Assembly: GCA_030647655.1 (NCBI GenBank) | Contig: JAUSJH010000003.1 | Coordinates: 11,013 to 75,012, forward strand | Length of the DNA: 64,000 nt | DNA from: a bacterium | Lineage (GTDB): Bacteria > Patescibacteriota > Minisyncoccia > Phycocordibacterales > UBA2100 | Reading direction: 5' to 3' | Shown here: positions 15,382 through 60,070 of the stretch, piece after piece | Layout of the letters: every line of letters begins with the position of its first letter | Position numbering within the stretch: the stretch's first letter is position 1 | Position numbers and translations under genes: made by a program | The notes under the pieces: generated by a model | What the model was told of the DNA's origin: nothing | The model's database searches: none | What the model saw: the letters and a program-made list of their open reading frames with translations, nothing else

Positions 15382-17208
15382 ATGTGCGGTATTTTTGCCT
15401 ATACGGGGAAGAAGGGAAAGGACGCAGGCGGGGTACTTTTGGACGGTTTATTGAGTCTTGAATATCGAGGCTACGACTCTGCCGGTATCTACACACCTGA
15501 AAGCGGGAGTGTACGGACGCCGGGGGCCGTGGCAGAACTTCGCAAGAAAATACCAAAGGGTTTTAAGGGAAAAAGCGGCATCGCACATTTACGCTGGGCG
15601 ACCCACGGCGAGCCGACGGAGAAAAATGCGCATCCACACTCGGATTGCGAAGGCGAGGTCTGGGTCGTGCACAACGGCATAATCGAGAATTTCAAGGAGT
15701 TGAAGGAAAAACTAATAAAAAAAGGACATACATTTACATCCGATTCCGACACTGAAGTTTTGGCGCACCTTGTCGAGGAACATCTAAAAAAGGAGAAGAG
15801 TTTCGAGAAAGCGGCACTCGCGGCTTTGAATGAAGTGAATGGCACGTATGGCATCGCGCTTCAATACAAGAAAGAACCAGACCGCATTATCGCGGCGCGC
15901 ATGGGCTCTCCCATAGTCTTGGGGCTTGGCGATGGTGAGCATTTCATCGCATCGGACCCGTCACCAATCCTTCCGCACACAAAAAAAGTCGTCTTTCTCG
16001 AAGACGGAGAAGTGGCCGTCATTTCACCTGATGGGCACAGGATATTCAAATTAGATTCGACAAAGGTGAAGCGTGATGCCACCAATATTGATTGGAGTGC
16101 GGAAGCGACCCAAAAGGGAGGGCATGAACATTTTATGCTCAAAGAAATTATGGAAGGGCCGGAGGTGATAGAAAATACGCTTCGCGGGAGGCTCATTATT
16201 GAAAAGGGACTTGCGAAGCTCGGCGGGCTCGAGAGCGTCGCAAAGCAGCTTGAAAAAATAGAGCGCGTCATCGTCGTCGCCTGCGGAACGGCTTACTATG
16301 CGGGCCTCGTAGGGGAGTACATGCTCGAGGAGTACGCGGGAATTCCCGTCGAAGTCGAACTGGGTTCGGAGTTCCGCTATCGCAAATCGGTCATTAATGA
16401 GAAGACGGTCGTCCTCGGTATTTCGCAATCAGGCGAGACGGCTGATACGCTTGAGGCCCTGCGCGAGGGGAAGCGACGCGGAGCACTCACCCTTGGCATC
16501 GTGAACACAGTAGGCTCCACGATTGCGCGCGAGACGGATGCGGGCGTCTACAATCACGCGGGGCCGGAAATAAGCGTGGCTTCTACCAAGGCATTCCTGT
16601 CGCAATTGACGGCGCTCGCGCTTTTCACGATGTTCTTCGGACGCCAGCGCGGAATGTCTGAGGCGACGGGACGGGAAATCGCGAAGGCGCTCAAAGAGCT
16701 TCCGGAGAAATTGCAGCAGATATTGGATACAAAGGAATCGATACAAAAACTTGCAAAGAAGTATTCAAAGGCACGCGATTTTCTCTACATCGGGCGTAAA
16801 TACAATTATCCAATCGCGTATGAGGGTGCCATCAAGCTCAAGGAAATTTCGTATGTACACGCCGAAGGCTGCGGAGCAGGCGAGATGAAGCACGGACCTA
16901 TTGCCATGATAGATGAGAATTTCCCGACGATGGCTATCGCGCCGAAAGACAGCATGTACGAGAAAATGGTGTCCAATATTCACGAGATAAAGGCGCGCAA
17001 AGGGCCCGTTATCGCTATTGCGACGAAGGGTGACAAGGAGATAGCGAAGCTCGCCGACGACGTACTCTATGTGCCGGAAACGCTTGAAATGCTCTCGCCG
17101 ATATTGAACGTCGTACCGCTACAACTTTTCGCCTACTATTTCGCAAAAGAAAAAGGTCTCAACGTCGACCGCCCGCGCAATTTGGCGAAGTCAGTTACTG
17201 TTGAATAA
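15382..17208 (+). CDS. glmS: Glutamine--fructose-6-phosphate aminotransferase (isomerising) GlmS.
   Basis: N-terminal MCGIFAY (Cys2 nucleophile) and two SIS domains (GISQSGETADT...). Length about 608 aa. ATG at 15382 preferred over the upstream GTG. Confidence 0.95.
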   Translation: MCGIFAYTGKKGKDAGGVLLDGLLSLEYRGYDSAGIYTPESGSVRTPGAVAELRKKIPKGFKGKSGIAHLRWATHGEPTEKNAHPHSDCEGEVWVVHNGIIENFKELKEKLIKKGHTFTSDSDTEVLAHLVEEHLKKEKSFEKAALAALNEVNGTYGIALQYKKEPDRIIAARMGSPIVLGLGDGEHFIASDPSPILPHTKKVVFLEDGEVAVISPDGHRIFKLDSTKVKRDATNIDWSAEATQKGGHEHFMLKEIMEGPEVIENTLRGRLIIEKGLAKLGGLESVAKQLEKIERVIVVACGTAYYAGLVGEYMLEEYAGIPVEVELGSEFRYRKSVINEKTVVLGISQSGETADTLEALREGKRRGALTLGIVNTVGSTIARETDAGVYNHAGPEISVASTKAFLSQLTALALFTMFFGRQRGMSEATGREIAKALKELPEKLQQILDTKESIQKLAKKYSKARDFLYIGRKYNYPIAYEGAIKLKEISYVHAEGCGAGEMKHGPIAMIDENFPTMAIAPKDSMYEKMVSNIHEIKARKGPVIAIATKGDKEIAKLADDVLYVPETLEMLSPILNVVPLQLFAYYFAKEKGLNVDRPRNLAKSVTVE

Positions 17209-19972: not shown

Positions 19973-20069
19973 GGGATGTGCGCGCATTCTAGCAGGGTCA
20001 TTTCCTTCGTGCAATACTGTGTCGCCGCGCTACAATTGACGATTGCGCGGCATGATTTCGCAAAATCAC

Positions 20070-20642
20070 ATGCAAAAAATTATCCTTGCCTCTGTATCGC
20101 CGTGGCGCAAGAAGATATTGTCGACCACCGGCATACCATTCAGCGTGGAGGAAAGCGGGTACAGGGAAAACATGAAACTGAAACTCGCGCCGCGCGTACT
20201 CGCGGGCAGGCTCGCGCTCGGGAAAGCTCAAATGGCTGCAGCACGGTACAAGGATGCGCTTGTTATCGGAGCGGATACATTCGCGGTATTTCGCGGCAAA
20301 CTTTTGGGCAAGCCGAATACTCCGAAGCGTTCCACAGAGATGCTTACGATGTTGAGCGGCAAGACACACACGCTCCTCACCGGATTTGCCATCGTAGATT
20401 CAAAGACTGGCAGACATGTCTCGAAAGCGATCGGGACGCGCGTAACCCTCAGGAGATTATCTGTGCGCGAAATTTCTGAATACGTGGCAACGGGAGAGCC
20501 GCTTAAGGCGGCTGGCGCCTATGCCATTCAAGGGCACGGACGGAAGTTGATACAGAAGCTCGTGGGGGACCCGAACAATGTCGCGGGATTCCCACTTACG
20601 GCAGTTCTGCAAGAGCTAGCAAAATTCGGCGTGGGGGTATAA
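20070..20642 (+). CDS. maf: Maf-like nucleoside triphosphate pyrophosphatase.
   Basis: IILASVSPWRKKIL N-terminus, conserved Maf core. Start at internal ATG (MQKII). Confidence 0.8.
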   Translation: MQKIILASVSPWRKKILSTTGIPFSVEESGYRENMKLKLAPRVLAGRLALGKAQMAAARYKDALVIGADTFAVFRGKLLGKPNTPKRSTEMLTMLSGKTHTLLTGFAIVDSKTGRHVSKAIGTRVTLRRLSVREISEYVATGEPLKAAGAYAIQGHGRKLIQKLVGDPNNVAGFPLTAVLQELAKFGVGV

Positions 20643-22143: not shown

Positions 22144-22218
22144 TTTTCCGTCGCTATCTGCGCGTGCTCGCACAGCGCTCGGTCTCGGCCCCGACGGACC
22201 TGCGAAGCCGGAAAAAGA
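22144..22218 (+). repeat. Copy 1 of a 75-nt structured intergenic repeat (second copy at 51172-51246).
   Basis: Shared core CCGTCGCTATCTGCG...CAGCGCTCGGTCTCGGCCCCGNCGGNCCTGCGAAGCCGG, flanked by an 8-bp outer stem that differs between copies with compensatory changes. Confidence 0.5.
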
Positions 22219-22252
22219 CAATACCCGCACTCGCTGTGATAGCATAGGCCCA

Positions 22253-22915
22253 ATGCAAAAATTCGGAGAAAGACAGAAACGAGCGCGTAGGCTTGTCGCG
22301 TACCTCAAAAAAGCGTATCCCAACCCTAAAACAGAACTCCACTATAAAACACCATTTCAGCTTGTCGTTGCGGTCGTGATGTCGGCGCAATGTACGGACA
22401 AGATTGTGAATCGTGTTACGGAAAAGCTTTTTAGAAAATACAAAAAACCCTCCTGTTTTGCAAATGCAAAGCCGCAGGTATTTGAACGCGAAATATCTTC
22501 AATCCCGTTCTTTAGGAACAAAGCGAAGCACATTATAGCGGCCGCGAAAATCATCTCCGGTGACTTTCGCGGCCGCGTGCCGCACACGGCGAAAGAACTC
22601 CAAACACTTCCCGGCGTCGGATACAAGACCGCGCACGTGATTTTGGGTGAACTATATGACACGTGGGAAGGTATACCGACCGACACGCATGTGAAGCGAT
22701 TTGCTAAGCGTTTTGATCTGACGGACGAGAATGACCTCACCAAAATATCAAAGGATTTGGAGGCGCTAATTCCGAAAAAAGATTGGAAATACGTCAACAA
22801 CGGCCTCGTTCTCCACGGCCGCTATGTCTGCCCCGCCCACCCGCATGATTGCCTCGCGCATCCGCTCACCAAACTCTGGCCCCTGGCCGCAAAGCGCTGG
22901 CCCAAAACCCGCTAG
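22253..22915 (+). CDS. nth: Endonuclease III family HhH-GPD DNA glycosylase.
   Basis: HhH-GPD motif LPGVGYKTAHVILGE...D. The C-terminus has only two Cys (CPAHPHDC), not the four-Cys Fe-S loop. Confidence 0.8.
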   Translation: MQKFGERQKRARRLVAYLKKAYPNPKTELHYKTPFQLVVAVVMSAQCTDKIVNRVTEKLFRKYKKPSCFANAKPQVFEREISSIPFFRNKAKHIIAAAKIISGDFRGRVPHTAKELQTLPGVGYKTAHVILGELYDTWEGIPTDTHVKRFAKRFDLTDENDLTKISKDLEALIPKKDWKYVNNGLVLHGRYVCPAHPHDCLAHPLTKLWPLAAKRWPKTR

Positions 22916-25113
22916 AGTCCGCGGCGAATCCTACGTGTCGTTTCGACAATGTAATTGAGTTGGTATTTTGCGGTCAGCGGTTTGTCTTGTGCATGCAGGT
23001 ATTCTTCCGCGAAACCGCCAAAACCTTTCTTGAAAAGCGAAAGGCCAGCCCACGGATGCCGAGGTCGGTCATCGGGTGAGATACCCCAGAAATTATAGAG
23101 CGTGCAACCGCGACGTTTCGCTTCCTGTATCACGCGCCACTGTAGAAGATACGAGGCGTTGATGTCCGCAAATTTCTGGAGCGAGCCGCTGTGGTGATAG
23201 AAGGCCTGCCCGTTGTAAAAAATCATGATGGCCGACGTGATGAGCTCGCCCTTGTATGAGCCGAAGAAAAATGTTGCCTCGTTGTTCGCGGCGAACAACT
23301 CGAATTCTTTTCGGAGGTCTTTTTTGCCGAATGCCGTGAAGTGCTGACGCTTGACGGTCTCCTGATAGATGGGCCAGAATTTCTCGATATCCTCCGGATT
23401 GGTGCTTTGTGTGATCTCCACCCCCTCCTTCTCCATCTTTTTGATAAGGTATCGCGTCGTCTTGCGCATCTCTTTGAGGAGAGTTTCTTCGGGCTTCGTG
23501 ATATCGAGCATCCACGATAGTTCCGGATGCATGTGAATGGGCGCGTTGCGGAATCCGAGTTCGTGGTACAGCAGCTTGTTTTCAGGCGAGGGTTTTGCGA
23601 GCGGACAGAAACGGATGAAATCGCATTCTTCGACACGCGCAATACGTGTGGCCTCCCGCGCGATGTGCCGGAGAAGACTCTCCTCGTTTTCGGTTGTACT
23701 TATTGCGGGGCCATGCGGACACAAAAGAAATGAACCGCGGCGGGCATCTATTTTTATGAAAAGCGCCACGGCAACAACATCCTCACCTTTACGCATCGCG
23801 ATGCGGAATATCTTTGACCCCCCTTGCTCATACTGTTCTCCCCAGACCCACGATTGCAAAAAACTGTGCGGCTTTTGTTTTACGAGGAATTTCTCCCATG
23901 CATCTTTATCGGCCGACGTTATCGTGTACGGCGCATCCACATCGGCTTTCAGCCATTCGTTAAGGCTTTGCGCAATAATACGTGCCTGTCCGGCGGACAC
24001 ATTGATATGTGTCGAAAGATTCACGATGCGATTCGAAATATCTTCCGCATGCGGACACTCATTTTTGTAATTCGTATGGTGCAGATATTTCTTGGGCGCC
24101 ACTGGCGCGTCGTACCAAGTGTCCGAGACATACACATATGCTTCTCTGAAATGCTCAATAAGGCGGTCTCTGCCTTGCACGAGAATAGGGAACCGGAGGT
24201 TGGCGGCGTTTTTTAAATCGTAGGTCAGCCGGATGTCTTTATTGAGTTCTCGCGCGTATACCTCGGCGATTTCGCGCCTGTGTGCGGCGGTTTTTTCCAA
24301 TGCCCCATACTGTCGTAGGATATTCGCGCAATACCATCCGGGTAGCACATGGGCTCCACTGCCATTGTTGCTGAATGGTGTCGAAAGAATCCCTAGCGTG
24401 CGCCACATTTGATGGAGAAATTTTCCGATACCCAAGGGATAAAAAGCCCTGATTTTCCAAGTAAGTCTCGGATAGAAGCGATCTTTTAATTGTTTCCCGA
24501 AGGGGATTTTCTTCGTTGGTGGAGAAATTGTCTTGTATTTCTCATTGCGGACGATGAGCGCGCCACCGGAGACTGCATCTACGACTTTGTCTTGGCTGAA
24601 TGAAAGGACCACAAAATCTCCGACAGTCCCAGCTTCACGTCCGTCCGCATAACGCGCGCCGATTGAGTGCGCCAAGTCTTCAATCAGGATAATTCCATGT
24701 TCTTTACAGAAAGCGGCGATAGGTTCGATATCACATGGAATACCAAGCGTATTTTGCACAACGACGGCTTTGATAGAGGAGTTTGAGTCGACTGCAGTAC
24801 GGAACGTTTCGTACGAAAAATCGAGAGAGTTTTCTGCGATGTCGAGATAGTGGACCGAGTGACCGCTTTCTGCTATCGCCTCATAGACAGCAAGACACGT
24901 GAATCCATTCATTGCGACCGCACCTTCGGGGAGCGCCTTAACGGCGAGCGATAGCGCTTCGCGGCCTTTGTAGGTGAGGATTGCGCGCCCTCCGTAGCGC
25001 GTCTCAAGGTATTCTGTCAATTTTCTCTGCGTCTCTTTTCCACCATATGAAAACAATATCTGCCACCCAGAGAGAAACGTGTAGTTCGAACCAAGAGAAT
25101 TGAAGACGTTCAT
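22912..25113 (-). CDS. Bifunctional fusion: N-terminal DegT/DnrJ/EryC1/StrS-type PLP-dependent aminotransferase, C-terminal FemAB-family aminoacyl-tRNA-dependent transferase.
   Basis: N-half has the DegT-like lysine motif SFSQDKVVDAVSGGAL and the ...IEDLAHSIGA region. C-half has the FemAB-like FLQSWVWGEQY start and the characteristic central helical segment (LLKEMRKTTRYLIKKMEKEGVEI). Single 733-aa ORF with ATG. Confidence 0.6.
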   Translation of the reverse strand: MNVFNSLGSNYTFLSGWQILFSYGGKETQRKLTEYLETRYGGRAILTYKGREALSLAVKALPEGAVAMNGFTCLAVYEAIAESGHSVHYLDIAENSLDFSYETFRTAVDSNSSIKAVVVQNTLGIPCDIEPIAAFCKEHGIILIEDLAHSIGARYADGREAGTVGDFVVLSFSQDKVVDAVSGGALIVRNEKYKTISPPTKKIPFGKQLKDRFYPRLTWKIRAFYPLGIGKFLHQMWRTLGILSTPFSNNGSGAHVLPGWYCANILRQYGALEKTAAHRREIAEVYARELNKDIRLTYDLKNAANLRFPILVQGRDRLIEHFREAYVYVSDTWYDAPVAPKKYLHHTNYKNECPHAEDISNRIVNLSTHINVSAGQARIIAQSLNEWLKADVDAPYTITSADKDAWEKFLVKQKPHSFLQSWVWGEQYEQGGSKIFRIAMRKGEDVVAVALFIKIDARRGSFLLCPHGPAISTTENEESLLRHIAREATRIARVEECDFIRFCPLAKPSPENKLLYHELGFRNAPIHMHPELSWMLDITKPEETLLKEMRKTTRYLIKKMEKEGVEITQSTNPEDIEKFWPIYQETVKRQHFTAFGKKDLRKEFELFAANNEATFFFGSYKGELITSAIMIFYNGQAFYHHSGSLQKFADINASYLLQWRVIQEAKRRGCTLYNFWGISPDDRPRHPWAGLSLFKKGFGGFAEEYLHAQDKPLTAKYQLNYIVETTRRIRRGL

Positions 25114-32297: not shown

Positions 32298-32456
32298 TCG
32301 CACAAGCCTAACACAGGGGGAAAATCTTGCAATGGAGAATACTATACGAGCAAAATATTGTCAAGCCCAGAACATAATCCCGACCCATAGATAAAAACTT
32401 GTATTAACCGCCTCTCTGCGCTATAGTTGCGAACCAAAATTACTTGTATTATAAAA

Positions 32457-32780
32457 ATGAATATGAAAAAAGAATCGAAAGAGTCCAAGGTAAAGATACA
32501 ACTTCTCGGGGACAGGGTTCTTGTGAGACCGGAGGAGCAAATGAAGAAAACTGCGTCCGGTATTTTAATCCCCGATACTGCAAAACAGGAAAAGGCGACA
32601 CGCGGCACGGTACTTTCTGTGGGTCCCGGACGTATGAATGATGATGGGAAAGTCCTGCCGATGTCGCTTAAAGTCGGACAAAAAGTGTACTTCAATCCCG
32701 GATGGGAGAGCGAGATAGAGGTAGACAACGAGAAGCTCCACCTTATCCACGAGAGCGATGTAAAAGCTATCATCAAGTAA
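32457..32780 (+). CDS. groES: Co-chaperonin GroES.
   Basis: IQLLGDRVLVRP...GILIPDTAKEK...GTVLSVGPG motifs. Confidence 0.9.
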   Translation: MNMKKESKESKVKIQLLGDRVLVRPEEQMKKTASGILIPDTAKQEKATRGTVLSVGPGRMNDDGKVLPMSLKVGQKVYFNPGWESEIEVDNEKLHLIHESDVKAIIK

Positions 32781-32787
32781 TATTTAT

Positions 32788-34446
32788 ATGGCAAAACAAG
32801 TAATTTTTGATGAACAGGTGCGCTCCGCACTCAAGCGCGGTGTTGATATCGTGGCGAGTGCGGTCAAAGTGACACTCGGCCCCAAGGGTCGCAACGTTGC
32901 ACTCTCCAAATCGTGGGGAGGACCGACCATCACCAACGACGGCGTCTCGATAGCAAAAGAGATAACACTCGCCGATAAGTTCGAGGATATGGGCGCGTCC
33001 ATCGTGAAAGAGGTAGCGACAAAGACTGAAGATAAGGCGGGTGACGGCACCACAACCGCGGTAGTACTCACACAAGCCATCGTACACGAGGGCCTGAAGC
33101 GTACGGCGCTTGGGGCTAACGCCATGATGGTACGACGCGGCATAGAAGCCGCTGTGAAAGATGCCGTTGCGGCGTTGAAGAGTGAGGCACAGGAAGTAAA
33201 AACTAAAGCCGAGAAACGACAAGTGGCGACCATTGCCGCAGAGTCGAAAGAGATCGGCGAGAAAATCGCGGAGGTCGTCGAAAAGGTGGGAAAGGACGGT
33301 GTCGTGACCGTTGAGGAGTCGCAGACTACCGAAATCGAATCGGAGTACGTCGAGGGAATGGAGTTCGACAAAGGCTATGTCTCTGCCTATATGATAACGA
33401 ACGCGGAACGCATGGAAGCTGTGGCAAAAGATGTTCTCGTGCTTATCACTGATCAAAAGATCTCGGTCATTAAAGATATTCTGCCGCTCTTGGAGAAGGT
33501 GGCGCAATCCGGCAAGAAAGAGCTTGTCATAATTGCAGAGGACGTGGATGGAGAGGCGCTCGCGACATTCGTCGTTAATAAATTGCGCGGTGCATTTAAT
33601 GTGCTTGCAGTGAAAGCGCCGGGCTACGGTGATCGCAAGAAGGAAATGCTCGCAGATATCGCCATCACGGTCGGCGGTCAGGTCATCTCGGAAGACCTCG
33701 GCATCAAATTGGAAAATGCAGAATTAAATATGCTTGGGAAAGCGAATCGTATCGTTGCTACAAAAGACTCGACCACCATCGTCGGGGGTAAGGGAAAGAA
33801 AAGTGATATTGAGGAGAGGGTCGCTGAGCTTAGAGAGCAAGTACAAAAGAGCGATTCGAAATTCGACAAAGAAAAACTGGAAGAACGCATCGCGAAACTT
33901 TCCGGCGGGGTGGCAGTCATCCGTGTAGGCGCTGCGACCGAAACCGAAATGAAATATCTCAAAGATAAAATTGAAGATGCGGTCAAGGCGACCAAGGCGG
34001 CGATTGCGGAGGGTATCGTCCCCGGCGGGGGCGCCGCGCTCGCAAAAGTTGCCGCGAAACTCGCGAAAAAGATCGACCCGAAAGCGCACGATGAGCACAC
34101 GATTGGATACCGTATTCTTCTCAGTGCGCTTTCTGCGCCTCTCCTGCAGATCGTTAAGAATGCGGGGCGTGAAGATGGTGCTGTCATCCTTCAGGCGGTG
34201 ATAAAAAAAGGCGGGAGTTTTGGGTTCGACGCGTCGGCAGAATCAGAGGAGACCGCAATCGTCGATATGTATGAAGCGGGCATCATCGACCCGGTCAAGG
34301 TGACGCGTCTGTGCGTTGAAAATGCAGCCTCCGCTGCGGCGGTTCTCCTCACGACGGAAGCGGCCGTGGCCGATATTCCGGAAGACAAGAAGGCAGCGCC
34401 CTCGGGCGCCGGAGGCATGGGAGGGGGAATGGGTGAAGACTACTAA
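32788..34446 (+). CDS. groEL: Chaperonin GroEL.
   Basis: Full-length Cpn60 with GDGTTTA, ITKDGVS-type blocks and a C-terminal GGMGGGM repeat tail. Confidence 0.97.
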   Translation: MAKQVIFDEQVRSALKRGVDIVASAVKVTLGPKGRNVALSKSWGGPTITNDGVSIAKEITLADKFEDMGASIVKEVATKTEDKAGDGTTTAVVLTQAIVHEGLKRTALGANAMMVRRGIEAAVKDAVAALKSEAQEVKTKAEKRQVATIAAESKEIGEKIAEVVEKVGKDGVVTVEESQTTEIESEYVEGMEFDKGYVSAYMITNAERMEAVAKDVLVLITDQKISVIKDILPLLEKVAQSGKKELVIIAEDVDGEALATFVVNKLRGAFNVLAVKAPGYGDRKKEMLADIAITVGGQVISEDLGIKLENAELNMLGKANRIVATKDSTTIVGGKGKKSDIEERVAELREQVQKSDSKFDKEKLEERIAKLSGGVAVIRVGAATETEMKYLKDKIEDAVKATKAAIAEGIVPGGGAALAKVAAKLAKKIDPKAHDEHTIGYRILLSALSAPLLQIVKNAGREDGAVILQAVIKKGGSFGFDASAESEETAIVDMYEAGIIDPVKVTRLCVENAASAAAVLLTTEAAVADIPEDKKAAPSGAGGMGGGMGEDY

Positions 34447-34508: not shown

Positions 34509-37500
34509 ATGTACTGGCCTCGCGTTGCGGGAGTTTTCGGGGCATCCCTGTTATTTTTTATGTTGGCGAGTGCACCATTTGTGTATGCGAAGGATAGAGC
34601 CGCTGATGCGATGTGCCTTCCTCCCGACGACACTCACGGATACAAAAAGGGTTTGGAATATGATGCTCTGTACAAAGACGGTGATAAGGAAAAGCGGAAT
34701 TTATACAACAAGAAATGCTTCGATGATTTCGTAACAGGAATATGTGACCGTGAGGATTATTGCGAGGGAAAGCAATGTTTCAGTGATGGAAAGTGGGGTA
34801 ATTGTGAGCTCTATCACCAGAAGACCACGAACGGCCAGATTCAGAACTGCTACGTCGGAGTTCTTGACTGCTCAAAACCATATACTCCCGGACAGGGCAC
34901 GGGGGTTGCACCTCCGCCATCGGAAAATCCTTCGCTTCCGCCACTCACACACGACGGTAAATCCATTCTGCAGACACTGCAAGATAATGAGCAACCGTCG
35001 GGTCCACTGCCCCAATCTGCGAACAACGTGCAGCAATTAATCGAGCAGGCTGCGCAAAATCCGGACACGCCATGGTCGCTTGAAGGTATTAAGAACGTAC
35101 TAAACGATGTACGAAGTTTCCTTTCTCCGGAATCAGCCACTTTTCTCACGCCGACACCACAAGAATCGGGAGCGGTAAATGAACAGTCTCAACGGACGGA
35201 TGAAATTACAGGATTGCCTGTCACTGATACATTCGGACAACCGCAAACGCAAACAGAGCAAAAGACCTCTTTTTTGGATACGTTGGGTGAAGCATGGAAA
35301 GAGGTGAAAAGTGCCGTGAGTGACGCTGGTACGTGGATTGCCGATCTCGTCACTCCAAATCCGGAAGAGACACCAACCAATCCAGCTAATGGTTTTGCCG
35401 AGAATAATGCAGCATTGACCGACCCTGATGTTAAGTCAGATGTTCCTCCCACCATTCCGCCGGACCAAATAGCTTCTCGAGAACCCAGTGTCTCTGAAAC
35501 TCCAAAAGAATCAGTAGATAGAGCTCAAGGAATAGCGAGCGTTCAGCCTACTGCGAAAGAATCATCGCCGACGTCACCGAACGTAGGGCCCACAGCAAGT
35601 CCGGACATAGTCAAAAAAGCCGCACAAGCACTCTCTGATGCAACAGAAGCGTTCGGTGCCGCCCGCGGCTATTCGAAGGAAGGAATGGAGAATGTAAAGG
35701 GCGGTCTCGGCGCGCTCGCCCAGATGGAATCGAGGTTCGATCCAAGTATCGGTTGTAACGAACCCGGCTACTGCGGCTTCGGACAGCTCTCTGAAGGGAA
35801 GAGCAGTTCGCACGAAAATGAAACTGCGCTTGCACGTAACACACTTGGCGCTCTTTCCCAATCGCCAAACTTGAGCCCCGAGCAACAAGCACAGGTGTCA
35901 CAAATAGTCGACCGAATAGACTCGATGCAAGCACAGGGAAAAAGTCCGAATGCAGATCCGGAAACAGGCGCATGGCTCCTTGCGGCTCGGCAGGCGCAAA
36001 TGACGGATATCGGTAAGAATGTCTCGCCGATGGATGCGGCGGCAAAATACGCGCAAACACCCACGGACGCTGCTGGGATTATGTTCGGCGCGCAGCTCGC
36101 CCCGTCGATGTATGGAAAAGGATTCAACCCGGACGCACCGCTTTCTTCGGGTGCTATCAATGCGTTCAACAGCAATAAGGTCTCTGTCCAGTCGGGAAGC
36201 ACGATGTCAGATGCAATAGCGGCCATGCAGGAGCAGCCGATATACAGGCAACGCTTCGCGGAGGGCATCGGTATTATAGGCGGGGGAACATATAGCAGTC
36301 CAGACCCATTAATCTCAGCAAAGCCACCTGGGTCATACTTTGATACAGCACTTCAGAACGGCGGTCTTTATCAGGAGCCGACTTTCCAGCAATCCGTGTA
36401 CGACATGTATGGCGAGAGTACCGACAATCAAAATGTTGCCGAGGCAGGTTTCCAGAACTACAACACCGAGCAAGCCGACACCGTTCTCAAGTTTGCCGCA
36501 GGATGGGAAGGCACGTTCGCAGGTAGTGCGCAAGAAAATGCAAACATAGCCGCTCAACAAGCCTTCAACACCATCGCCCACCCAGAAGACTGGCCGCAAC
36601 TTCCCGCGCCAACCTACGATCTCGACGCCGCCAACGCCGCAGAAGCTGTGCGTCTCGCAGAAAGTGGAGCTTTCGATTCCGGAGTCTCTCTCACGCAAGA
36701 GCAGGTCCAAGCCGCATACGATGCCGCCAACAACGAAGCTAACAAACCCGAGAGTTGGTTTAAGTCAAAAGTCGTCAATCCGCTTTACGACAATGTCATT
36801 GATCCACTTAGAAATTCTCTCGGCCTGAATTCGCCGCAACCGAATCCAGTCGTGCTTCCAGATTCGCGCTCGTTGTCAGACCGAGTAATCGAAAGCATTC
36901 CTTCGCCGCTTAAACCGAGCCCGACCATTGCAGTGCAAACGGAAAGCCTACCTCCGCCTATGGATTATCCAGCTTCGCAATTAACAGGCACATACTACGG
37001 ACCTAACGGTGAGATTATCAAAGCGGATGTAGCGGGAGTTGAAATTACGCAACCAAGGGGTGAGATAAGCGCGTTCATTCCATCGGACAAGCTTGGGAAC
37101 ATGACTGTTGGCGACGTGATAGCGCAAGCCAAGGAACGCCCGCGCACAGAAACAGCCCAGGAAATGGAGCCGTATGGCCCACCGGTTCCGAACCGTACTA
37201 CCCCGACGCCGGTGGAACTCGAAGCGGCAACCAAGATTTTAGACGACAAACTTTCGAGCGCCCGCACCGCTGTCGAGGTGGCGAAAGCTGTAGCCGAAGC
37301 CGCACCAACAGATTTCACCAAAGATTCAGTACGATTATTAGAACAGCGACTTGCGCAAATAGAGGAATACGGTCGACAATACCGGGAGTATATGGTTGCA
37401 GGTGGCCTACCGCCGGAATGGCTCTCGAATGCCGTTGATACGGCAAGAAAGGGTGAGGGATACATATCGCAGGGCTTATCGGCATTTTCGGACGCGGCAC

Positions 37501-40475
37501 ACGGCAACGCAGCGATGGCTGAAGCAAATCTTCGTACTGTCTGGGACGAGACGAAAAATGAAAGTAATCTATCGCTCTCGCAGATGGCGCGACTTACCGG
37601 GAACAGCCTATGGTGGGCTGCGGAATCCGCAGCCGGTCTCGTCGGCGGTGGGCTGAAGACAGGTAGCGAACTTGCGGGGCTGAGTAATCCGAATCTCGAC
37701 AACGCGCTCAAACAACAGCTCGACCCGGAAGGGGAAGGTATAAAAGCTGCGGCTATCATTGCGCCGTTTGCCTACAGCGGATTACGTCACGGAGGCGAAG
37801 CCGTGCTCGATCGGGTTTTTGGGGAGGTAGTTACCTCGGAAGTAAGCGCAGGTGCGCGGACAAGTGCCGTCGAGGCCGTTGGCGTCCGCGATAGTGCTGG
37901 ATTCGTCCAACGCACAGCTCCTGTCGAGGATCTCAGTATCGCACGGGCGACTCCCGAAGTGCCGCGTGTTGCGGAAACACCCCCACCACTTTCTCTGGCG
38001 GATTCTGCGGGGTCTTCCTTACCAAAGGCGGCGAATGTTGACCCTGTGGGAGATGTATTTGCACCGCCGACCAAAAATCTCGACGATGCATTCGCAAAGG
38101 TTGAGAGAGCAGCCGATGAGTTTAAATCTCCTGGGAGCGCAGAACCTTCCGCGCCGCCCGCGTCGGACAATCCTTTCTTGAAGGGCACGGATAATATTAC
38201 TCGTCGTGCGGCAGGAGAGGCGGAGGTGTCCAGTCCGGCGGCTAGTGGTATTAAAGATGCTGCTGCGGAGATTGACAGGATAGCGGCAGAAGCTCGCGCG
38301 GCGGCTAAAGCGCCAATTCCTGAGGTCAAACCTGCGGCGGAGGTGCCCGCTCCATCCGGCCCACCGAATCCGGGAGAGTACGTGCCTACTATTAAGGACA
38401 AATTTGCAAGTATGTGGGATGGTCTCAAGACAACGGCCACCGATTGGAGAGACAGGTTATTCGGCAGAGAAATCACCGAACCGGTAAAGGCTCCGGCCTT
38501 GTCTCAAGATGAACTTGCATTGCAGCGCATGACAAATGAAGGGGGCCCTGTGCCGCCGGAGCGCACCCCGTCCACCCCTGCTCCGGGGCTTGGGTCGCAG
38601 GGGGAGGCATCTTGGGAAGGCGGATTCGCGCAACGGCCCGGAGCACCCACTGTCGATTCCGCCAACTGGACTGGCGGCAAGGACTTCAAGGGATTTGATC
38701 TGACCACACCCGACTCCAACGCACCACTTCTTAAACAATCTCTTGAGGGTGACTTCATGTATCCACAGGCACCCAAACCACTTGCAGAAACAACCATTGC
38801 GCCCGCACCGCCTGTAGAGACAAAGACATTGTGGCAGAGCACAAAGGAACTCTTCGGACTTGGTGAAAAACCGTCGACACCAGCACCTTTGGCTCAAGCA
38901 GAACGTGATGCGTTGGCGGCGGGAGACCAAGCTCGTGTGGTGGAACGGACTCCGAGGCCCGAGGCGAGCGCAAAGCCATTGACCGACGATGAACTTGCGC
39001 TTATCAGGCAGGTAGAAGTGGGCACCGTGCCAAACCCGCGTACCGCCGCGCTGACACCAGATGCGGCGAACGTACCAGTCGTTGCGGACAGACCAGTTCC
39101 TGTATCTGAACCGTCTCTCTGGGAACGGTGGTTTGGAAAGAGCGAGCCGGCGGCAATTGAGACGCCAAAGGTAGCGGTTGTGCCTGAGACTACGCCAACG
39201 CCAAAGGCTCTAGATGCTACTGCGCCCAGAGCCGAACCGTCGCCAGCAGAAGCAACCCCTCCCGCACGGCCGGCTGCGGAGCCTGCGCCAATTGAGCCCG
39301 TGAAGAGAGGTAGCGGCGATGTTTCGAAACCGAACGCCGAGATAGCGATGGGGGATGAAGGCGCTGTACCGCTCAAGCCGGGCGCGGAGAATCCGTCCGG
39401 AAAAGTATGGAACGACAAATCGCTGACTCGTGATGAGTTTATTGCTGACTACAAAGCTGTCTATCCTAAAACCAGTCTCACCGATGCGCAGCTGGCCGAA
39501 CGATATGCCGTTGGACAACGGCTCAACCCAGAGACTGGCAGGCTGAAGGTTCCGGAGACTCAAGTAGCTCCCGGTATTGCTCCAGCAGCGCCGACGCCGG
39601 GCGGAGCAAAGACAGGCGGAGGTTCGTCAGCAGGATTGGACGCTTTGAAATCCACAGCAAGCTTTTGCACAGGCGGACTATTCAGATTCGGAGTTTGTGT
39701 CGGCGTTGGCGGCGGCATTTATTACGGAGTATCGAACCTATGGAATGGTCTCTGGCCGAGCAGCCAAACTCCACCGCCGAATGTGGAAACACCGCCAAAG
39801 GATGACCAAAGCACGGCCGTGCCGGATAAAGACAAGGATGCGCCGCCCCCAAGGAGAGAGGTCTCACCACCCTATCAGCCGCCAGTCGTTAGGCGCGATG
39901 TCGTGCCTATCGGTAGTGTGTATGCGCCACCAATCTGGAATCCAAATGGTGGTCCCATTCTCTCTCAAGACTATTACTGCATTACGAGCATTCAGCCCGT
40001 TATCGTTATTCCGCTCTCAGCCGGTTCGCAATTCCCGTCGAATTGCTACAACAGCTACTCGGGCGGACAAGGTGGTTCTGGGAACCCTTTCAGCATGCTC
40101 GGACAAATGCTCGCCAGAGCCTTAGGCATTCAGCCGACACCGCTACAGCCACCTATGCCGCAAACTCCGCCACCTACGAACCCCCCACCTATTATTATTC
40201 CGCCGCGGGCCACGTCGACTCCGCAAAAGCCCATCGTCACGCTCATTGCGAATCCGGCAACCGTCGCGCCTCAAGGCAAAGCGCGTCTCTCGTGGTCTAG
40301 CACGGGGGCATCAGTTTGCGGCGTCTTTATGCCGGACGGCGCGAAAATTGGAGAGGGAAATCCGGACGGTTCGACTTCTACGCCCCCACTTGCCGCCACG
40401 ACCGTATTTACCGCCAAATGTTCTGCGACGTCGGGCGCGACAAGCTCTGCGCAAACGACTGTAACTGTTCGCTAA
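34509..40475 (+). CDS. Giant (1989 aa) secreted low-complexity protein with Cys-rich N-domain, lytic-transglycosylase (SLT/lysozyme)-like motif and Ig-like C-terminus.
   Basis: Signal peptide MYWPRVAGVFGASLLFFMLASAPFVYA and 10-Cys N-domain. MESRFDPSIGCNEPGYCGFGQL resembles the family-1 LT ES-x-F-x-P...G-x-G-Q motif. Over 1200 aa of A/P/E/T/Q-rich linker with internal DELAL-R repeats. Gly-rich hydrophobic segment and Pro-rich plus Ig-like C-terminus. Confidence 0.6.
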   Translation: MYWPRVAGVFGASLLFFMLASAPFVYAKDRAADAMCLPPDDTHGYKKGLEYDALYKDGDKEKRNLYNKKCFDDFVTGICDREDYCEGKQCFSDGKWGNCELYHQKTTNGQIQNCYVGVLDCSKPYTPGQGTGVAPPPSENPSLPPLTHDGKSILQTLQDNEQPSGPLPQSANNVQQLIEQAAQNPDTPWSLEGIKNVLNDVRSFLSPESATFLTPTPQESGAVNEQSQRTDEITGLPVTDTFGQPQTQTEQKTSFLDTLGEAWKEVKSAVSDAGTWIADLVTPNPEETPTNPANGFAENNAALTDPDVKSDVPPTIPPDQIASREPSVSETPKESVDRAQGIASVQPTAKESSPTSPNVGPTASPDIVKKAAQALSDATEAFGAARGYSKEGMENVKGGLGALAQMESRFDPSIGCNEPGYCGFGQLSEGKSSSHENETALARNTLGALSQSPNLSPEQQAQVSQIVDRIDSMQAQGKSPNADPETGAWLLAARQAQMTDIGKNVSPMDAAAKYAQTPTDAAGIMFGAQLAPSMYGKGFNPDAPLSSGAINAFNSNKVSVQSGSTMSDAIAAMQEQPIYRQRFAEGIGIIGGGTYSSPDPLISAKPPGSYFDTALQNGGLYQEPTFQQSVYDMYGESTDNQNVAEAGFQNYNTEQADTVLKFAAGWEGTFAGSAQENANIAAQQAFNTIAHPEDWPQLPAPTYDLDAANAAEAVRLAESGAFDSGVSLTQEQVQAAYDAANNEANKPESWFKSKVVNPLYDNVIDPLRNSLGLNSPQPNPVVLPDSRSLSDRVIESIPSPLKPSPTIAVQTESLPPPMDYPASQLTGTYYGPNGEIIKADVAGVEITQPRGEISAFIPSDKLGNMTVGDVIAQAKERPRTETAQEMEPYGPPVPNRTTPTPVELEAATKILDDKLSSARTAVEVAKAVAEAAPTDFTKDSVRLLEQRLAQIEEYGRQYREYMVAGGLPPEWLSNAVDTARKGEGYISQGLSAFSDAAHGNAAMAEANLRTVWDETKNESNLSLSQMARLTGNSLWWAAESAAGLVGGGLKTGSELAGLSNPNLDNALKQQLDPEGEGIKAAAIIAPFAYSGLRHGGEAVLDRVFGEVVTSEVSAGARTSAVEAVGVRDSAGFVQRTAPVEDLSIARATPEVPRVAETPPPLSLADSAGSSLPKAANVDPVGDVFAPPTKNLDDAFAKVERAADEFKSPGSAEPSAPPASDNPFLKGTDNITRRAAGEAEVSSPAASGIKDAAAEIDRIAAEARAAAKAPIPEVKPAAEVPAPSGPPNPGEYVPTIKDKFASMWDGLKTTATDWRDRLFGREITEPVKAPALSQDELALQRMTNEGGPVPPERTPSTPAPGLGSQGEASWEGGFAQRPGAPTVDSANWTGGKDFKGFDLTTPDSNAPLLKQSLEGDFMYPQAPKPLAETTIAPAPPVETKTLWQSTKELFGLGEKPSTPAPLAQAERDALAAGDQARVVERTPRPEASAKPLTDDELALIRQVEVGTVPNPRTAALTPDAANVPVVADRPVPVSEPSLWERWFGKSEPAAIETPKVAVVPETTPTPKALDATAPRAEPSPAEATPPARPAAEPAPIEPVKRGSGDVSKPNAEIAMGDEGAVPLKPGAENPSGKVWNDKSLTRDEFIADYKAVYPKTSLTDAQLAERYAVGQRLNPETGRLKVPETQVAPGIAPAAPTPGGAKTGGGSSAGLDALKSTASFCTGGLFRFGVCVGVGGGIYYGVSNLWNGLWPSSQTPPPNVETPPKDDQSTAVPDKDKDAPPPRREVSPPYQPPVVRRDVVPIGSVYAPPIWNPNGGPILSQDYYCITSIQPVIVIPLSAGSQFPSNCYNSYSGGQGGSGNPFSMLGQMLARALGIQPTPLQPPMPQTPPPTNPPPIIIPPRATSTPQKPIVTLIANPATVAPQGKARLSWSSTGASVCGVFMPDGAKIGEGNPDGSTSTPPLAATTVFTAKCSATSGATSSAQTTVTVR

Positions 40476-40502
40476 TAGTTGAGATATGTTATACTTGCAC
40501 TT

Positions 40503-41063
40503 ATGAACATCACCTATATTTTATTGGTCGTTGTCGCAGTAATCGCTCTGTGGGCGGTTTGGGCGTACAACCGTTTCGTCACGCTTACCAATCGTGTAAA
40601 AGAAGGGTGGTCTGATATAGAGGTGCAAATGAAGCGTCGCTACGACCTCATTCCGAATCTCGTCGAGACGGTCAAGGGATACGCCGCGCATGAAGCGGGA
40701 ACTTTGCAGAAGGTGACAGAGATGCGTACGCGCGCAATGAACGCAACCTCACCGAAAGATAAGGCCGATGCGGAGAACATGCTCACGGGAGCACTAAAGA
40801 CCTTATTCGCTGTTGCCGAGAATTACCCCAATCTGAAAGCGAACGAGAATTTCGTAGAACTCCAGCGCGAGCTTTCTGATACAGAGAACAAAATCCAGGC
40901 CGCACGCCGCTTCTACAACGGCGTGGTTATGGAACTCAACACAAAGCTACAGTCGTTTCCGTCCAACCTCATCGGCAACATGTTTGGCTTCAAACAGAGC
41001 GACTTCTTCCAGCTCGGCGCCGACGAGCAGGCCGCAAAAGAGCCGGTGAAAGTAAAATTCTAG
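40503..41063 (+). CDS. lemA: LemA family membrane protein.
   Basis: N-terminal TM then the conserved LemA core (WAYNRFVTLTNRVKEGWSDIEVQMKRRYDLIPNLVE...). Confidence 0.85.
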   Translation: MNITYILLVVVAVIALWAVWAYNRFVTLTNRVKEGWSDIEVQMKRRYDLIPNLVETVKGYAAHEAGTLQKVTEMRTRAMNATSPKDKADAENMLTGALKTLFAVAENYPNLKANENFVELQRELSDTENKIQAARRFYNGVVMELNTKLQSFPSNLIGNMFGFKQSDFFQLGADEQAAKEPVKVKF

Positions 41064-41090
41064 AAAAGGCGCGCTGTGCGCTTAAATCGT

Positions 41091-41981
41091 ATGGCATCAC
41101 TCTACACACAGCAGGGTAAAAATATACGGAAGACATGGTTCCTAATGACCGGATTTCTGGTCATTGTCATCGGACTCGGGTGGATTGTATCGCAGGTGTA
41201 CGGAAACGCGGCTATTCTCTACGCGGCAGTCGTGTTCTCGCTTTTTATGAACGTGACTGCCTATTGGTTTTCCGACAAGGTAGCGCTTGCCGCAACAGGT
41301 GCCAAAGAAGCAGATTCGGTGAAATATCTAGAATTGCATCGCATCCTTGAGAATCTTGCCATCACTGCCGGGCTTCCGAAGCCGCGACTCTACGTGATAG
41401 ACGATCCCGCGCCTAATGCATTCGCTGCCGGGCGCAATACAAAACACGCAGTCGTCGCCGTGACGACAGGACTGCTTGAACGATTGGACAGGACCGAATT
41501 GGAAGGCGTACTTGCGCACGAGCTTTCGCACATCGGCAATCGCGATATTCTCGTCATGACGGTCGCCGTGGTCTTGGCGGGATTCATCGCGATTGTAGCC
41601 GACATATTTTTGCGCATGAGTTTTTTCGGCGGGGGAAACAGGGACAACAAAAACCCGTTGCTACTTATTGCCGCAGTGGCCGCGATTATCTTGGCACCCA
41701 TCGCTGCCCAACTCATACAGATGGCTGTCTCGCGCAAACGGGAATTTCTTGCCGACGCCTCCGGCGCGCTTCTCACGCGGTATCCCGACGGTCTCGCATC
41801 AGCGCTTACCAAGATCGCTTCATACGGCGCGCCGATGCGAAAGGCAAATCACGCGACCGCGCACCTATTTATCTCCAATCCATTCGGAGCTCACGAGGCG
41901 GGAAAATTTGTCGCCAAAATATTTTCTACTCATCCTCCAGTTGAAGAGAGGGTTGCGGCCCTAAAGGGCATGGAAGTGTGA
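41091..41981 (+). CDS. htpX: HtpX-like M48 zinc metalloprotease.
   Basis: HELSHIGNRD (HExxH), four TM helices and a downstream Glu ligand region. The ATG start is 27 nt after the lemA stop. Confidence 0.85.
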   Translation: MASLYTQQGKNIRKTWFLMTGFLVIVIGLGWIVSQVYGNAAILYAAVVFSLFMNVTAYWFSDKVALAATGAKEADSVKYLELHRILENLAITAGLPKPRLYVIDDPAPNAFAAGRNTKHAVVAVTTGLLERLDRTELEGVLAHELSHIGNRDILVMTVAVVLAGFIAIVADIFLRMSFFGGGNRDNKNPLLLIAAVAAIILAPIAAQLIQMAVSRKREFLADASGALLTRYPDGLASALTKIASYGAPMRKANHATAHLFISNPFGAHEAGKFVAKIFSTHPPVEERVAALKGMEV

Positions 41982-44737: not shown

Positions 44738-44771
44738 AGTAAAACAAAACAGCGAACCGAAGTTCGCTGTT
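44738..44771 (-). terminator. Rho-independent terminator of rnpB (ACAGCGAAC-UUCG-GUUCGCUGU followed by UUUUGUUUU on the minus strand).
   Basis: 9-bp stem with UUCG tetraloop and U-tract immediately 3' of the P1 closing strand. Confidence 0.6.
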
Positions 44772-45130
44772 TCGCTGCATCTGTAAGCCGGATTCTGTCG
44801 AGGGCAACCATGTATCTGGGATGATTGTCGCCAATCACCTCAAGCGACTCTCTCAGTCACGCCGCACTGAGCCCTTCGAACTCAATGCGGCGCGACCAAG
44901 CACGGTCTTGCACGCAGGTAGGATTTTTGCCGTTGCACCCAGTATGTTTCCACACCGGCTCACCCTTGCGGGTGTCTTCGCCTCTCGGCTAAGACGTCTC
45001 TGTTCGCATCCCTTAGATTACCTAGGTGGGCGTTACCCACTACCGTCCTGCTCCTTGCGGAGCGCGTGTCCGGACTTTCCTCTCAACGCTTGCGCGCGAG
45101 CGGCTGCCTAATGCAGAGATGCATTATTTC
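44772..45130 (-). ncRNA. rnpB: RNase P RNA (bacterial type A).
   Basis: Minus-strand sequence contains GAGGAAAGUCCGGAC (P4 5' strand / CR-I), GGGUAACGCCC (P8-P9 region) and ACAGAAUCCGGCUUA (CR-V / P4 3' strand). P1 pairs CUGCAU with AUGCAG. About 360 nt. Overlapping track ORFs 44821-45111(+) and 45124-45534(-) are considered spurious. Confidence 0.8.
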
Positions 45131-51171: not shown

Positions 51172-51246
51172 TCTTGCCGTCGCTATCTGCGGCTACTGCC
51201 GCAGCGCTCGGTCTCGGCCCCGTCGGGCCTGCGAAGCCGGCAAGAA
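51172..51246 (+). repeat. Copy 2 of the 75-nt structured intergenic repeat (first copy at 22144-22218).
   Basis: Same core sequence. Outer stem TCTTGCCG/CGGCAAGA versus TTTTTCCG/CGGAAAAA in copy 1. Confidence 0.5.
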
Positions 51247-51288
51247 ACATTTCCACTCACTTCGTTAGTGTAATGCTAAGATTACCCG

Positions 51289-51660
51289 ATGGCAATACGC
51301 CAACGCAATGACCCTGTTCGTCTTTTCGGTAAGCGCCTGCTTCTCGTGGCGCTCTTCGTGGGCGTCATTGTCGCCATCGGAGGTGCGTGGAGTGCATACA
51401 AGAAGGAACGGGAATCCCGCGCGTTGCGCGTGGAAGCAGAGGCACAGCTTCGTGACTTTTCCGAGCGGCAAGCGCAGTTGGATTCAGATATAGCGAATTT
51501 GCAAACCGATCGCGGCATGGAGGGTGTGTTGCGCGAACAGTACGCGCTTGCCGCTCGCGGTGAGAAGCTCATCGTCATCGTCGAGCCCCAGAAGCCGGAG
51601 CCTATCGAAGCCCCTCCCTCGGTCCTGCAGTGGCTTCACAGGGTTTTTCCTTGGTGGTAG
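51289..51660 (+). CDS. Septum-formation initiator family protein (FtsB/DivIC-like).
   Basis: Short N-terminal cytoplasmic tail, one TM helix (LLLVALFVGVIVAIGGAW), then a coiled coil (RALRVEAEAQLRDFSERQAQLDSDIANLQTD). About 120 aa. Confidence 0.5.
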   Translation: MAIRQRNDPVRLFGKRLLLVALFVGVIVAIGGAWSAYKKERESRALRVEAEAQLRDFSERQAQLDSDIANLQTDRGMEGVLREQYALAARGEKLIVIVEPQKPEPIEAPPSVLQWLHRVFPWW

Positions 51661-59586: not shown

Positions 59587-59687
59587 TCCGGCATTGTATC
59601 AGTTCTTACTTCATCACGGACCGTTTATGATATACTGCAAGGCCGCGTTTTAATGGACGATTACACGGCATAATTTCGCAAAATCAC

Positions 59688-60065
59688 ATGAAAAAGGGAG
59701 TGCTTATTTTCTGGCTAATCATCGTAGTGCTTATCGTCGTTGGCGTCGGGGCATCGGTCTTTGTGAAAGAGAAGCCGGGGCAACTCGACACCTTCGCGCA
59801 ATGCCTCAAAGACAAAGGCGCCATATTTTATGGCGCGTTCTGGTGTCCGCATTGCCAAGCAACCAAGGCGATGTTCGGTGGCTCAGCGCGGCTACTGCCG
59901 TATGTCGAATGTTCGACTCCAAACGGGCAGGGTCAGTTGCAGATATGTAAAGACAAAAGCGTACAACAGTATCCGACGTGGACATTCGCGAACTCGACGA
60001 CGACATTGACGGGCGAGCGTACGTTGCAGGAATTGTCGCAGGCAAGCGGGTGTCCATTGCCGTAG
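59688..60065 (+). CDS. Membrane-anchored thioredoxin-like protein (BdbA-like).
   Basis: N-terminal TM. WCPHC CxxC motif. Small (125 aa). Confidence 0.6.
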   Translation: MKKGVLIFWLIIVVLIVVGVGASVFVKEKPGQLDTFAQCLKDKGAIFYGAFWCPHCQATKAMFGGSARLLPYVECSTPNGQGQLQICKDKSVQQYPTWTFANSTTTLTGERTLQELSQASGCPLP

Positions 60066-60070
60066 TCAAC

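Follow-up and report, generated by a model that had tools for sequence, protein, structure and literature searches.

The groEL locus and its giant gene

We analysed a 64,000-nucleotide stretch of DNA from a member of the Patescibacteriota (GenBank assembly GCA_030647655.1, contig JAUSJH010000003.1, positions 11,013 to 75,012 of the forward strand; hereafter the window). Just downstream of groES and groEL lies a gene for a very large protein, here called the giant, and lemA and a gene for an HtpX-like M48 peptidase follow it. The giant open reading frame (ORF) is unbroken from ATG 34509 to the stop codon at 40473-40475, and the in-frame start furthest upstream is TTG 34482. The mature protein has a mass of about 206 kDa and a pI of 4.6, and its NCBI record reads 'MAG: hypothetical protein Q7S50_01430 [bacterium]'. 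Since it carries a lysozyme-type domain, the giant most likely cuts bacterial cell wall. The features of the locus, in window coordinates, are as follows.

32427-32780, + strand: groES (Pfam Cpn10)
32788-34446, + strand: groEL (Pfam Cpn60)
34509-40475, + strand: giant gene, 1988 amino acids (aa) plus stop (1989 codons including the stop)
34509-34592, + strand: Sec-type signal peptide, residues 1-28, predicted cut after VYA (from hydrophobicity and homologs)
34593-34883, + strand: Cys-rich module, residues 29-125, 8 Cys (from homolog alignment)
34884-35618, + strand: variable linker 1, residues 126-370, rich in P/T/Q/S/E, with few alignable stretches beyond the closest relatives
35619-36287, + strand: predicted divergent lysozyme-like (GH23/SLT-like) domain, residues 371-593 (from family alignment and structure model)
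35727-35729, + strand: codon of Glu407, candidate catalytic acid (from invariance, model and hhalign)
36366-36743, + strand: short conserved motifs, residues ~620-745 (phmmer matches to relatives P0010, P0012 and P0006)
37197-38198, + strand: module M, residues ~897-1230 (shared with P0007, P0009 and P0010)
38214-38489, + strand: conserved island, residues ~1236-1327 (phmmer match to P0010 residues 1742-1830)
38490-39659, + strand: variable Ala/Pro/Glu/Thr-rich region, residues ~1328-1717 (from composition)
39660-39743, + strand: Gly-rich, weakly hydrophobic stretch, residues 1718-1745 (Kyte-Doolittle <1.4)
39936-40058, + strand: small Cys-pair beta unit, residues ~1810-1850 (conserved between the giant, P0002 and P0010)
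40233-40472, + strand: predicted C-terminal Ig-like beta-sandwich, residues 1909-1988, with invariant W, C, G and C
40503-41063, + strand: lemA, probable start ATG 40503 (Pfam LemA, 2.8e-62)
41076-41981, + strand: M48 (HtpX-like) peptidase gene (Pfam Peptidase_M48, 7.4e-37)

The original prediction for this locus had placed the giant between groEL and a LemA plus M48 pair, which the matches to Cpn60, LemA and Peptidase_M48 bear out, and had picked the start at ATG 34509. The range that it gave, 34509-41981, overshoots the stop at 40475 and takes in lemA and the M48 gene. Its 1989 aa is the number of codons with the stop, the protein having 1988 residues, and its description of the size as 'two-kilodalton-scale' is wrong for a protein of this mass.

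The giant ORF, from a Kaiserbacteria-like ultra-small bacterium, is real: it is found unchanged in a second assembly of independent origin, its DNA is free of repeats, and its modules stand in the same order as in homologs. The independent copy is on a Logan contig (L001, run SRR13727527), where the same 1988-aa ORF comes after SecG, GroES and GroEL. DNA repeat finders detected no tandem or long direct repeats in the ORF, and the order of the N-terminal module, lysozyme-like domain, module M and C-terminal module is collinear with P0002 and P0010, which come from other samples. An ORF of 1988 codons is also far from expected by chance in DNA of 53% GC. The concern raised earlier, that a chimera or collapsed repeats had yielded a false long ORF, was reasonable for a long, compositionally biased sequence in a metagenome-assembled genome, but in view of these three results it is barely credible.

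The internal repeats that had been predicted were not borne out, self-BLASTP of the giant giving no significant internal protein repeats. The two DELAL blocks named in that prediction do exist, at residues 1334 and 1494, as matches of about 8-10 residues. A diversity-generating retroelement was considered as the source of the giant's variability and was rejected, a search for template/variable repeat pairs having found none that touch the ORF.

The N-terminus of the giant reads MYWPR, a 22-residue hydrophobic core and then VYA/KD (the slash marks the cut), in agreement with the signal peptide originally proposed, and this is the only stretch of the protein with a Kyte-Doolittle value >1.4. A positive N-terminal residue, a hydrophobic core and a small-x-small site are all present, and there is no lipobox; the residues that precede the first Cys (D-A-M) are incompatible with one. 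Equivalent small-x-small cleavage sites, such as AHA/Q, VQA/A and AYA/S, are found in homologs. Because the N-termini of 12 homologs line up with the giant's ATG start, both this start and the Sec-type signal peptide are well supported, and the giant is predicted to be exported via Sec.

The Cys-rich module comes directly after the signal peptide. A Cys domain of about 100 aa had been foreseen here with 10 Cys; the module is there, and the count is 8, all within residues 36-121, four of them (C36, C70, C79 and C85) being invariant throughout the family. The module could be aligned in 13 of 15 relatives and in a second giant (4566 aa) at a related locus (L012), and it has no match in Pfam or, in a sequence search with alignment A6, in the PDB. 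The DsbB-like gene at 59978-60601 of the same window is consistent with disulfide-rich exported modules in the giant. The presence of this gene implies extracytoplasmic disulfide formation in this small-genome organism, and its product could oxidise the giant's Cys-rich modules after export.

The relatives were obtained by an exhaustive phmmer (HMMER) search with residues 1-1200 of the giant against 1.84 billion representative proteins (E<=0.001), which found 15 proteins of 682 to 2315 aa. The ten whose clusters were looked up are named only 'hypothetical protein', and one relative maps to the GTDB genome Candidatus Kaiserbacteria bacterium GFS_4339. Word-indexed homolog searches with the whole giant, with residues 371-700 and with the domain alignment A1 returned the giant itself or nothing; the relatives came to light only in the exhaustive HMMER scan. 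There was no match for the whole giant in Pfam and NCBIfam at E<=1, no meaningful Pfam match for any of its excised segments at E<=10, and no PHROG match for any segment. Neither tblastn against 50,697 phage records nor a scan of IMG/VR and JGI metagenome contigs with the A2 patterns found a relative, and literature searches found no paper on the family.

The lysozyme-like domain

A domain of about 220 aa is common to the giant and 10 of its relatives, which share residues ~371-600 with phmmer E-values down to 1e-61. Residues 406-427 of the giant are MESRFDPSIGCNEPGYCGFGQL, with MESRFDPS at 406, and AAAKYAQ stands at 510. In alignment A1 (10 sequences), E407, G423 and Q426 are invariant and S408 is found in 9/10, in proteins that are mutually only 29-52% identical. 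A further invariant block reads G-x-x-P-x-x-D-x-x-x-G-x-W.

The AlphaFold2 (AF2) model of the domain, made with A1, has a pLDDT of 92.6 and a pTM of 0.90. It is a mainly helical, lysozyme-like fold with a small beta hairpin after the putative catalytic helix: Glu407 lies at the C-terminal end of helix 390-408 and the short hairpin comes next. The model's best structural matches come from enzymes of the lysozyme fold, above all family-1 lytic transglycosylases, and GH19 chitinase and GH46 chitosanase folds are also among the matches. The slt, emtA, mltC and mltD genes of Escherichia coli K-12, taken from the RefSeq record, were used for comparison in hhalign, which puts ALAQMESRFDPS..GFGQL of the giant on AIARQESAWNPK..GLMQI of Slt70. 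The pairwise E-value is 0.0076 against Slt70 and 0.0017 against an alignment of Slt70, MltE, MltC and MltD. Glu407 is aligned to the E-S glutamate of all four enzymes, which is known to be their catalytic residue. SLT motif I, the E-S Glu at the C-terminal end of a helix, is therefore present in the giant's domain, and motif II is represented by G-F-G-Q-L aligned to G-L-M-Q-I, in which fall the invariant G423 and Q426.

The original prediction had recognised an SLT-like ES/GxGQ core in this region and had suggested that it be checked by profile search and by fold. The two checks gave different answers. The fold check speaks for the prediction, with a confident model whose best matches have the lysozyme fold and with Glu407 on the E-S Glu of Slt70. 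The profile search does not: at E<=10, Pfam SLT (PF01464) matches neither the whole giant nor the domain on its own, even when the query is cut closely around the ES motif, and it matches none of the 15 relatives at E<=0.01.

Several further results weigh against reading the domain as a wall-cutting enzyme of this kind. Foldseek against the PDB gave a best E of 0.76, which is not significant, and the weak matches were to chitosanase, GH19 and GH23 chitinases, phi29 gp13 and T4 lysozyme. The hhalign alignments span only 25-29 columns with probabilities of 5-15% and end after motif II, and the A1 consensus lacks AYNxG, which is SLT motif III. The domain is recognised by none of Pfam, NCBIfam and PHROGs, nor in the PDB via phmmer/hmmsearch, where sequence searches with the domain and with profile A1 gave nothing. 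In addition, P0007 and P0010, which share the scaffold of the giant, are without the lysozyme-like domain. We nevertheless conclude that the domain represents a new branch of the lysozyme-like superfamily, one that is very divergent, has GH23 as its nearest group and falls outside Pfam SLT as currently defined.

Roughly at the position of the lysozyme-like domain, P0007 (~270-430) and P0010 (~280-440) have a different conserved domain of ~150 aa with the sequence KAT(F/Y)Y(T/S)AQGTGSGEKFN...YVNDWGNLGPG. An RlpA/DPBB-like identity was considered for it and was unsupported by Pfam and PDB sequence searches.

Some relatives that bear the lysozyme-like domain also have recognisable partner domains. 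PG_binding_1 is found in P0006 and P0008, Amidase_2 in P0013 as well as in P0023, the full-length version of P0013, and a further match, to CHAP, is weak and sub-threshold. Such partners, like the genes for wall synthesis in the window (Mur ligase, FemAB, MurJ and GlmS), are context in favour of wall cleavage.

Other modules, conserved neighbourhood and further features of the window

The family has four conserved pieces, namely the Cys-rich module, the ~220-aa domain, module M and a C-terminal block, and the linkers between them are unalignable. More than 1200 aa of low-complexity sequence had been predicted for the giant, which is not what we found: the long middle part is rich in A (12.5%) and P (10.8%), SEG masks short patches only, and residues ~897-1230 form the conserved module M. 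The core signature of module M is W..(11 residues)..G...G.E..G..NP....A..Q..DP.G, and it has no match in Pfam, PHROGs or the PDB (the last searched with A4). The short motifs at ~620-745 are of the YD(M/L)YGES...AEAGFQNYN type and include LTQEQVQAAYD. The island at 1236-1327 has the motif (A/S)-(M/W)-W-(D/N)-(D/G)-L-K...FG, which can also be seen by eye in P0002, P0007 and P0009, and to residues ~1328-1717 none of the relatives aligns.

The conserved C-terminal block (~1720-1988) consists of the Gly-rich stretch, the Cys-pair unit, a short helix and the terminal domain. The Gly-rich hydrophobic stretch of the original prediction was located, with FCTGGLF at residue 1719, and similar stretches occur in P0002 and P0010; no helix is predicted in it, and its pLDDT in the AF2 model is <40. 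The Cys-pair unit has the sequence GP(I/V)L..DYYC...P.(I/V)V.(P/T)(L/V)SAG..FP...CYN and strands modelled at pLDDT ~77. The terminal domain is confidently modelled as a seven-stranded, two-sheet Ig-like sandwich, as had been anticipated.

The gap between groEL and the giant gene is 62 nt and that from the giant's stop to the ATG of lemA is 27 nt. The mechanical lemA ORF begins at TTG 40479, and LemA has 186 aa in other loci. A promoter/terminator scan around the giant gene, whose yield was that expected from shuffled sequence, found no convincing terminator before lemA; co-transcription of the giant with lemA and the M48 gene is thus plausible from the sequence.

The giant gene lies just 3' of groES-groEL in seven genomes or contigs, and lemA and then the M48 gene are downstream wherever the contig extends far enough. 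The order SBP_bac_5, SecG, GroES, GroEL, giant, LemA, 0-2 small ORFs and M48 recurs in several loci. Its part from groES to M48 is seen in L002 (a Kaiserbacteria genome), L004 (P0002), L005 (P0010) and L007 (P0004), the last with an unannotated 380-aa ORF between the giant gene and lemA. L006 (P0006) shows the giant gene followed by lemA, and L008, L012 and L013 show groES-groEL-giant to the end of the stretch. Identity to the window copy is 72-80% for GroEL, 71-76% for LemA and 67-70% for the M48 peptidase, whereas the giant aligns in islands only, at 35-49%. In L012 (GCA_964512835.1, CAZELA010000002.1), the 2247-aa P0023 comes directly after groEL and is followed by the second giant of 4566 aa (L012 14809-22744), in which the same Cys-rich N-terminal module is combined with Amidase_2. 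Tandem giants are thus possible in the slot after groEL.

The neighbours of the giant gene include SecG, GroES/EL, LemA, M48, tRNA-Ser, DUF1761 and DUF192, their order is conserved in related loci, and all those tested on both sides are housekeeping genes. The locus does not have the form of a toxin/immunity pair: the C-terminus is conserved and Ig-like, and wherever the contig reaches it, lemA is either the next gene or separated from the giant gene by a single unannotated ORF.

In two related loci other ORFs were noticed. L005 has a 329-aa Cys-rich secreted ORF before P0010 (4825-5814) and a Hydrolase_2 (SleB-like wall hydrolase) gene between lemA and M48 (13526-14236), and L004 has a 23S_rRNA_IVP/bAvd-like ORF between lemA and M48 (15770-16129).

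Elsewhere in the window, an 81-nt intergenic element occurs twice (22145-22225 and 51174-51254, 83% identical), each copy ~30 nt 5' of a + strand gene, one for an HhH-GPD glycosylase (22253-22915) and the other DivIC-like (51289-51660). On the + strand both copies can form a closing stem and two hairpins (z -2.7 and -4.6), and their differences are apparently compensatory. No Rfam family matches the element, which may represent a structured leader or a small RNA of a kind not yet described. A 64-nt repeat (20014-20077 and 59632-59695, 81% identical) has one copy across the beginning of a Maf-like gene (20043) and the other ~280 nt 5' of the DsbB-like gene (59978); it may be a shared regulatory element. 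The 838-aa protein encoded at 61157-63673 has a SpaA_2 prealbumin-like domain and is probably another surface protein. The first 105 nt of its gene recur 2.7 kb downstream (63885-63989, 76% identity), a hint that the N-terminus encoded by the next gene is paralogous. On the - strand, 22912-25113 encodes a 733-aa protein in which a DegT/DnrJ-type aminotransferase is fused to a FemAB-family domain, adjoining an alpha/beta hydrolase and a Mur-ligase-like gene, and this neighbourhood is an unusual wall-precursor modification cluster. The window also holds a bacterial type A RNase P RNA (44768-45119, - strand, 122.9 bits) and four tRNA genes (at 43651, 51803, 53210 and 54217); the mechanical ORF 44821-45111 is probably not a gene because it overlaps the RNase P RNA.

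Possible action of the giant and comparison with known systems

We propose that the giant is a Sec-exported, acidic protein in which small folded modules are strung on long variable linkers. Its only recognisable enzymatic module (~371-593) would be a highly divergent member of the lysozyme-like group, with a shape closest to the GH23 family-1 lytic transglycosylases. A glycan strand of peptidoglycan may be bound in the cleft between the helical lobe and the small beta hairpin, where Glu407, at the end of the 'E-S' helix, would break the MurNAc-GlcNAc bond in the role of general acid. The cut could be made by intramolecular attack, as in a lytic transglycosylase, or by hydrolysis, as in a muramidase. 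The Cys-rich N-terminal module, module M and the C-terminal Ig-like domain may serve in binding or anchoring, and the linkers may provide reach. Catalytic cleavage with peptidoglycan as the substrate is probable. The central idea of the original prediction stands, its suggestion of an envelope-spanning or host-contact protein being a conjecture. Its target may be the wall of an attached partner or host cell, which we favour by only a slight margin over the producer's own wall because of the extreme divergence, the swapping of modules and the very long tether. For the statement as a whole, an exported modular wall cutter with Glu407 as its acid and the partner wall as its probable target, we see an even chance.

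The data do not tell the own wall and the partner wall apart, and this counts against the reading just given. The same enzyme could work on the producer's own wall as an autolysin or 'space-maker' in growth, division, or the insertion of pili or envelope machines. A fixed housekeeping position without an immunity gene fits such a function: the gene keeps a strictly conserved chromosomal place amid housekeeping and proteostasis genes, neither an immunity-like gene nor a mobile-element signature accompanies it, and MurJ, a Mur ligase, FemAB and GlmS are encoded in the same window. The PG_binding_1, Amidase_2 and CHAP partners of its relatives are moreover typical of the modular autolysins of monoderm bacteria. 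However, divergence at a rate so far above that of the neighbouring genes is not expected of a core housekeeping enzyme, nor is a length range of 682 to 2315 aa or the loss of its domain in some genomes, and the own wall can be reached without a tether of more than 1000 residues. We therefore consider an autolysin rather unlikely. The divergence, the gain and loss of modules, the tandem duplication, the very long tether and an episymbiotic lifestyle fit instead a tool directed at a partner; all cultivated Patescibacteria are reported as episymbiotic (PMC12206443).

If the domain did not cut peptidoglycan at all, the giant might be a mainly structural surface scaffold or adhesin, in which the module only binds glycan or acts on another polysaccharide. 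Linkers and modules without an assigned function make up most of its length, a C-terminal Ig-like domain and a Cys-rich N-terminal domain are typical of adhesins, and chitinase and chitosanase folds are among the structural matches. This is quite improbable in view of the E-S Glu and the G and Q of motif II, invariant among such dissimilar proteins, of the peptidoglycan enzymes as best structural matches, and of the peptidoglycan-specific partner domains in relatives. Great length is usual in tape-measure proteins, and a transglycosylase domain may be part of them. The original prediction had linked the giant to phage tape-measure proteins or to VirB1-like muramidases of secretion systems. A prophage tape-measure protein, a virion lysin or a type IV helper is nevertheless hardly to be expected here, and this link is disfavoured: the searches of PHROGs, phage records and IMG/VR contigs found no counterpart, the neighbours are housekeeping genes in conserved order, a Sec signal peptide is present, and no virB4 or other type IV secretion domain was found among the 32 window ORFs scanned against Pfam.

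A wider proposal builds on the partner-directed wall cutter that we prefer. In Kaiserbacteria-like Patescibacteria, the slot after groES-groEL may house a rapidly diversifying, lineage-specific 'reach-out' device, a tethered giant muramidase that opens the partner wall at contact, with new binding or anchoring folds in the N-terminal module, module M and the C-terminal unit. Its production might be coupled to GroESL, LemA and the HtpX-like peptidase, that is, to heat-shock and envelope quality-control genes, because exporting a mostly unfolded 200-kDa chain would stress the Sec pathway. We regard this proposal as speculative and, in its full form, unlikely.

Little is known of the ways in which ultra-small Patescibacteria fasten onto other cells and feed on them, and their large surface proteins mostly lack annotation. 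The giant's family now gains a testable function, wall cleavage by a lysozyme-type domain, with a candidate catalytic residue named. Current profile libraries miss this domain completely, and the position after groEL, followed by lemA where seen, offers a genomic landmark for finding further members. Should the target be the partner wall, the family would rank as a candidate key factor in episymbiosis, and should it be the own wall, as an unusual autolysin. The enzymology is of a known kind in either case. Neither the lysozyme fold nor the broad concept of a secreted, modular wall hydrolase is new. New are a domain family invisible to every profile library tried, three further unannotated modules, a giant fast-evolving architecture and a fixed slot beside the chaperonin genes.

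Among known systems, the GH23 family-1 transglycosylases (E. coli Slt70, MltC, MltD, MltE/EmtA; PF01464) resemble the giant in their export, in the E-S Glu at a helix end and in the G-x-x-Q-(L/I) that follows. The likeness is limited to ~29 columns, and the giant, undetected by Pfam SLT, lacks AYNxG. Its domain of ~220 aa has extra helices and an invariant block of its own (G..P..D...G.W, AQLAP) and is embedded in a protein of 1988 aa. The phiKZ gp144 lytic transglycosylase (PDB 3bkh) has ~260 aa, whereas the giant has neither sequence similarity to any phage record nor a phage context. PrgK and TraG of pIP501, multidomain VirB1-like hydrolases of monoderm type IV systems, join a transglycosylase-type domain to CHAP, peptidase or LysM modules, and such combinations have been reported in Patescibacteria as well (PMC12102498). 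In contrast to these hydrolases, the giant has no type IV secretion genes seen nearby, belongs to a family missed by standard profiles, and is far larger, with N-terminal, middle and C-terminal modules of its own. Giant 'Archaeovorin' proteins occur in Omnitrophota, small bacteria that are putatively predatory or symbiotic; some of these proteins have an SLT-type domain and have been proposed to attack the partner's wall (bioRxiv 10.1101/2023.11.21.568195). They belong to another phylum, are an order of magnitude larger, and no homology to the giant was found. The modular autolysins of monoderm bacteria are amidase, glucosaminidase or CHAP enzymes with wall-binding repeats. Like the giant as we understand it, they are secreted, modular and fast-evolving and combine wall binding with wall cutting. 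They use recognisable Pfam domains and repeat-type anchors, whereas the giant's modules are mostly unannotated and its gene keeps a fixed position just 3' of groES-groEL.

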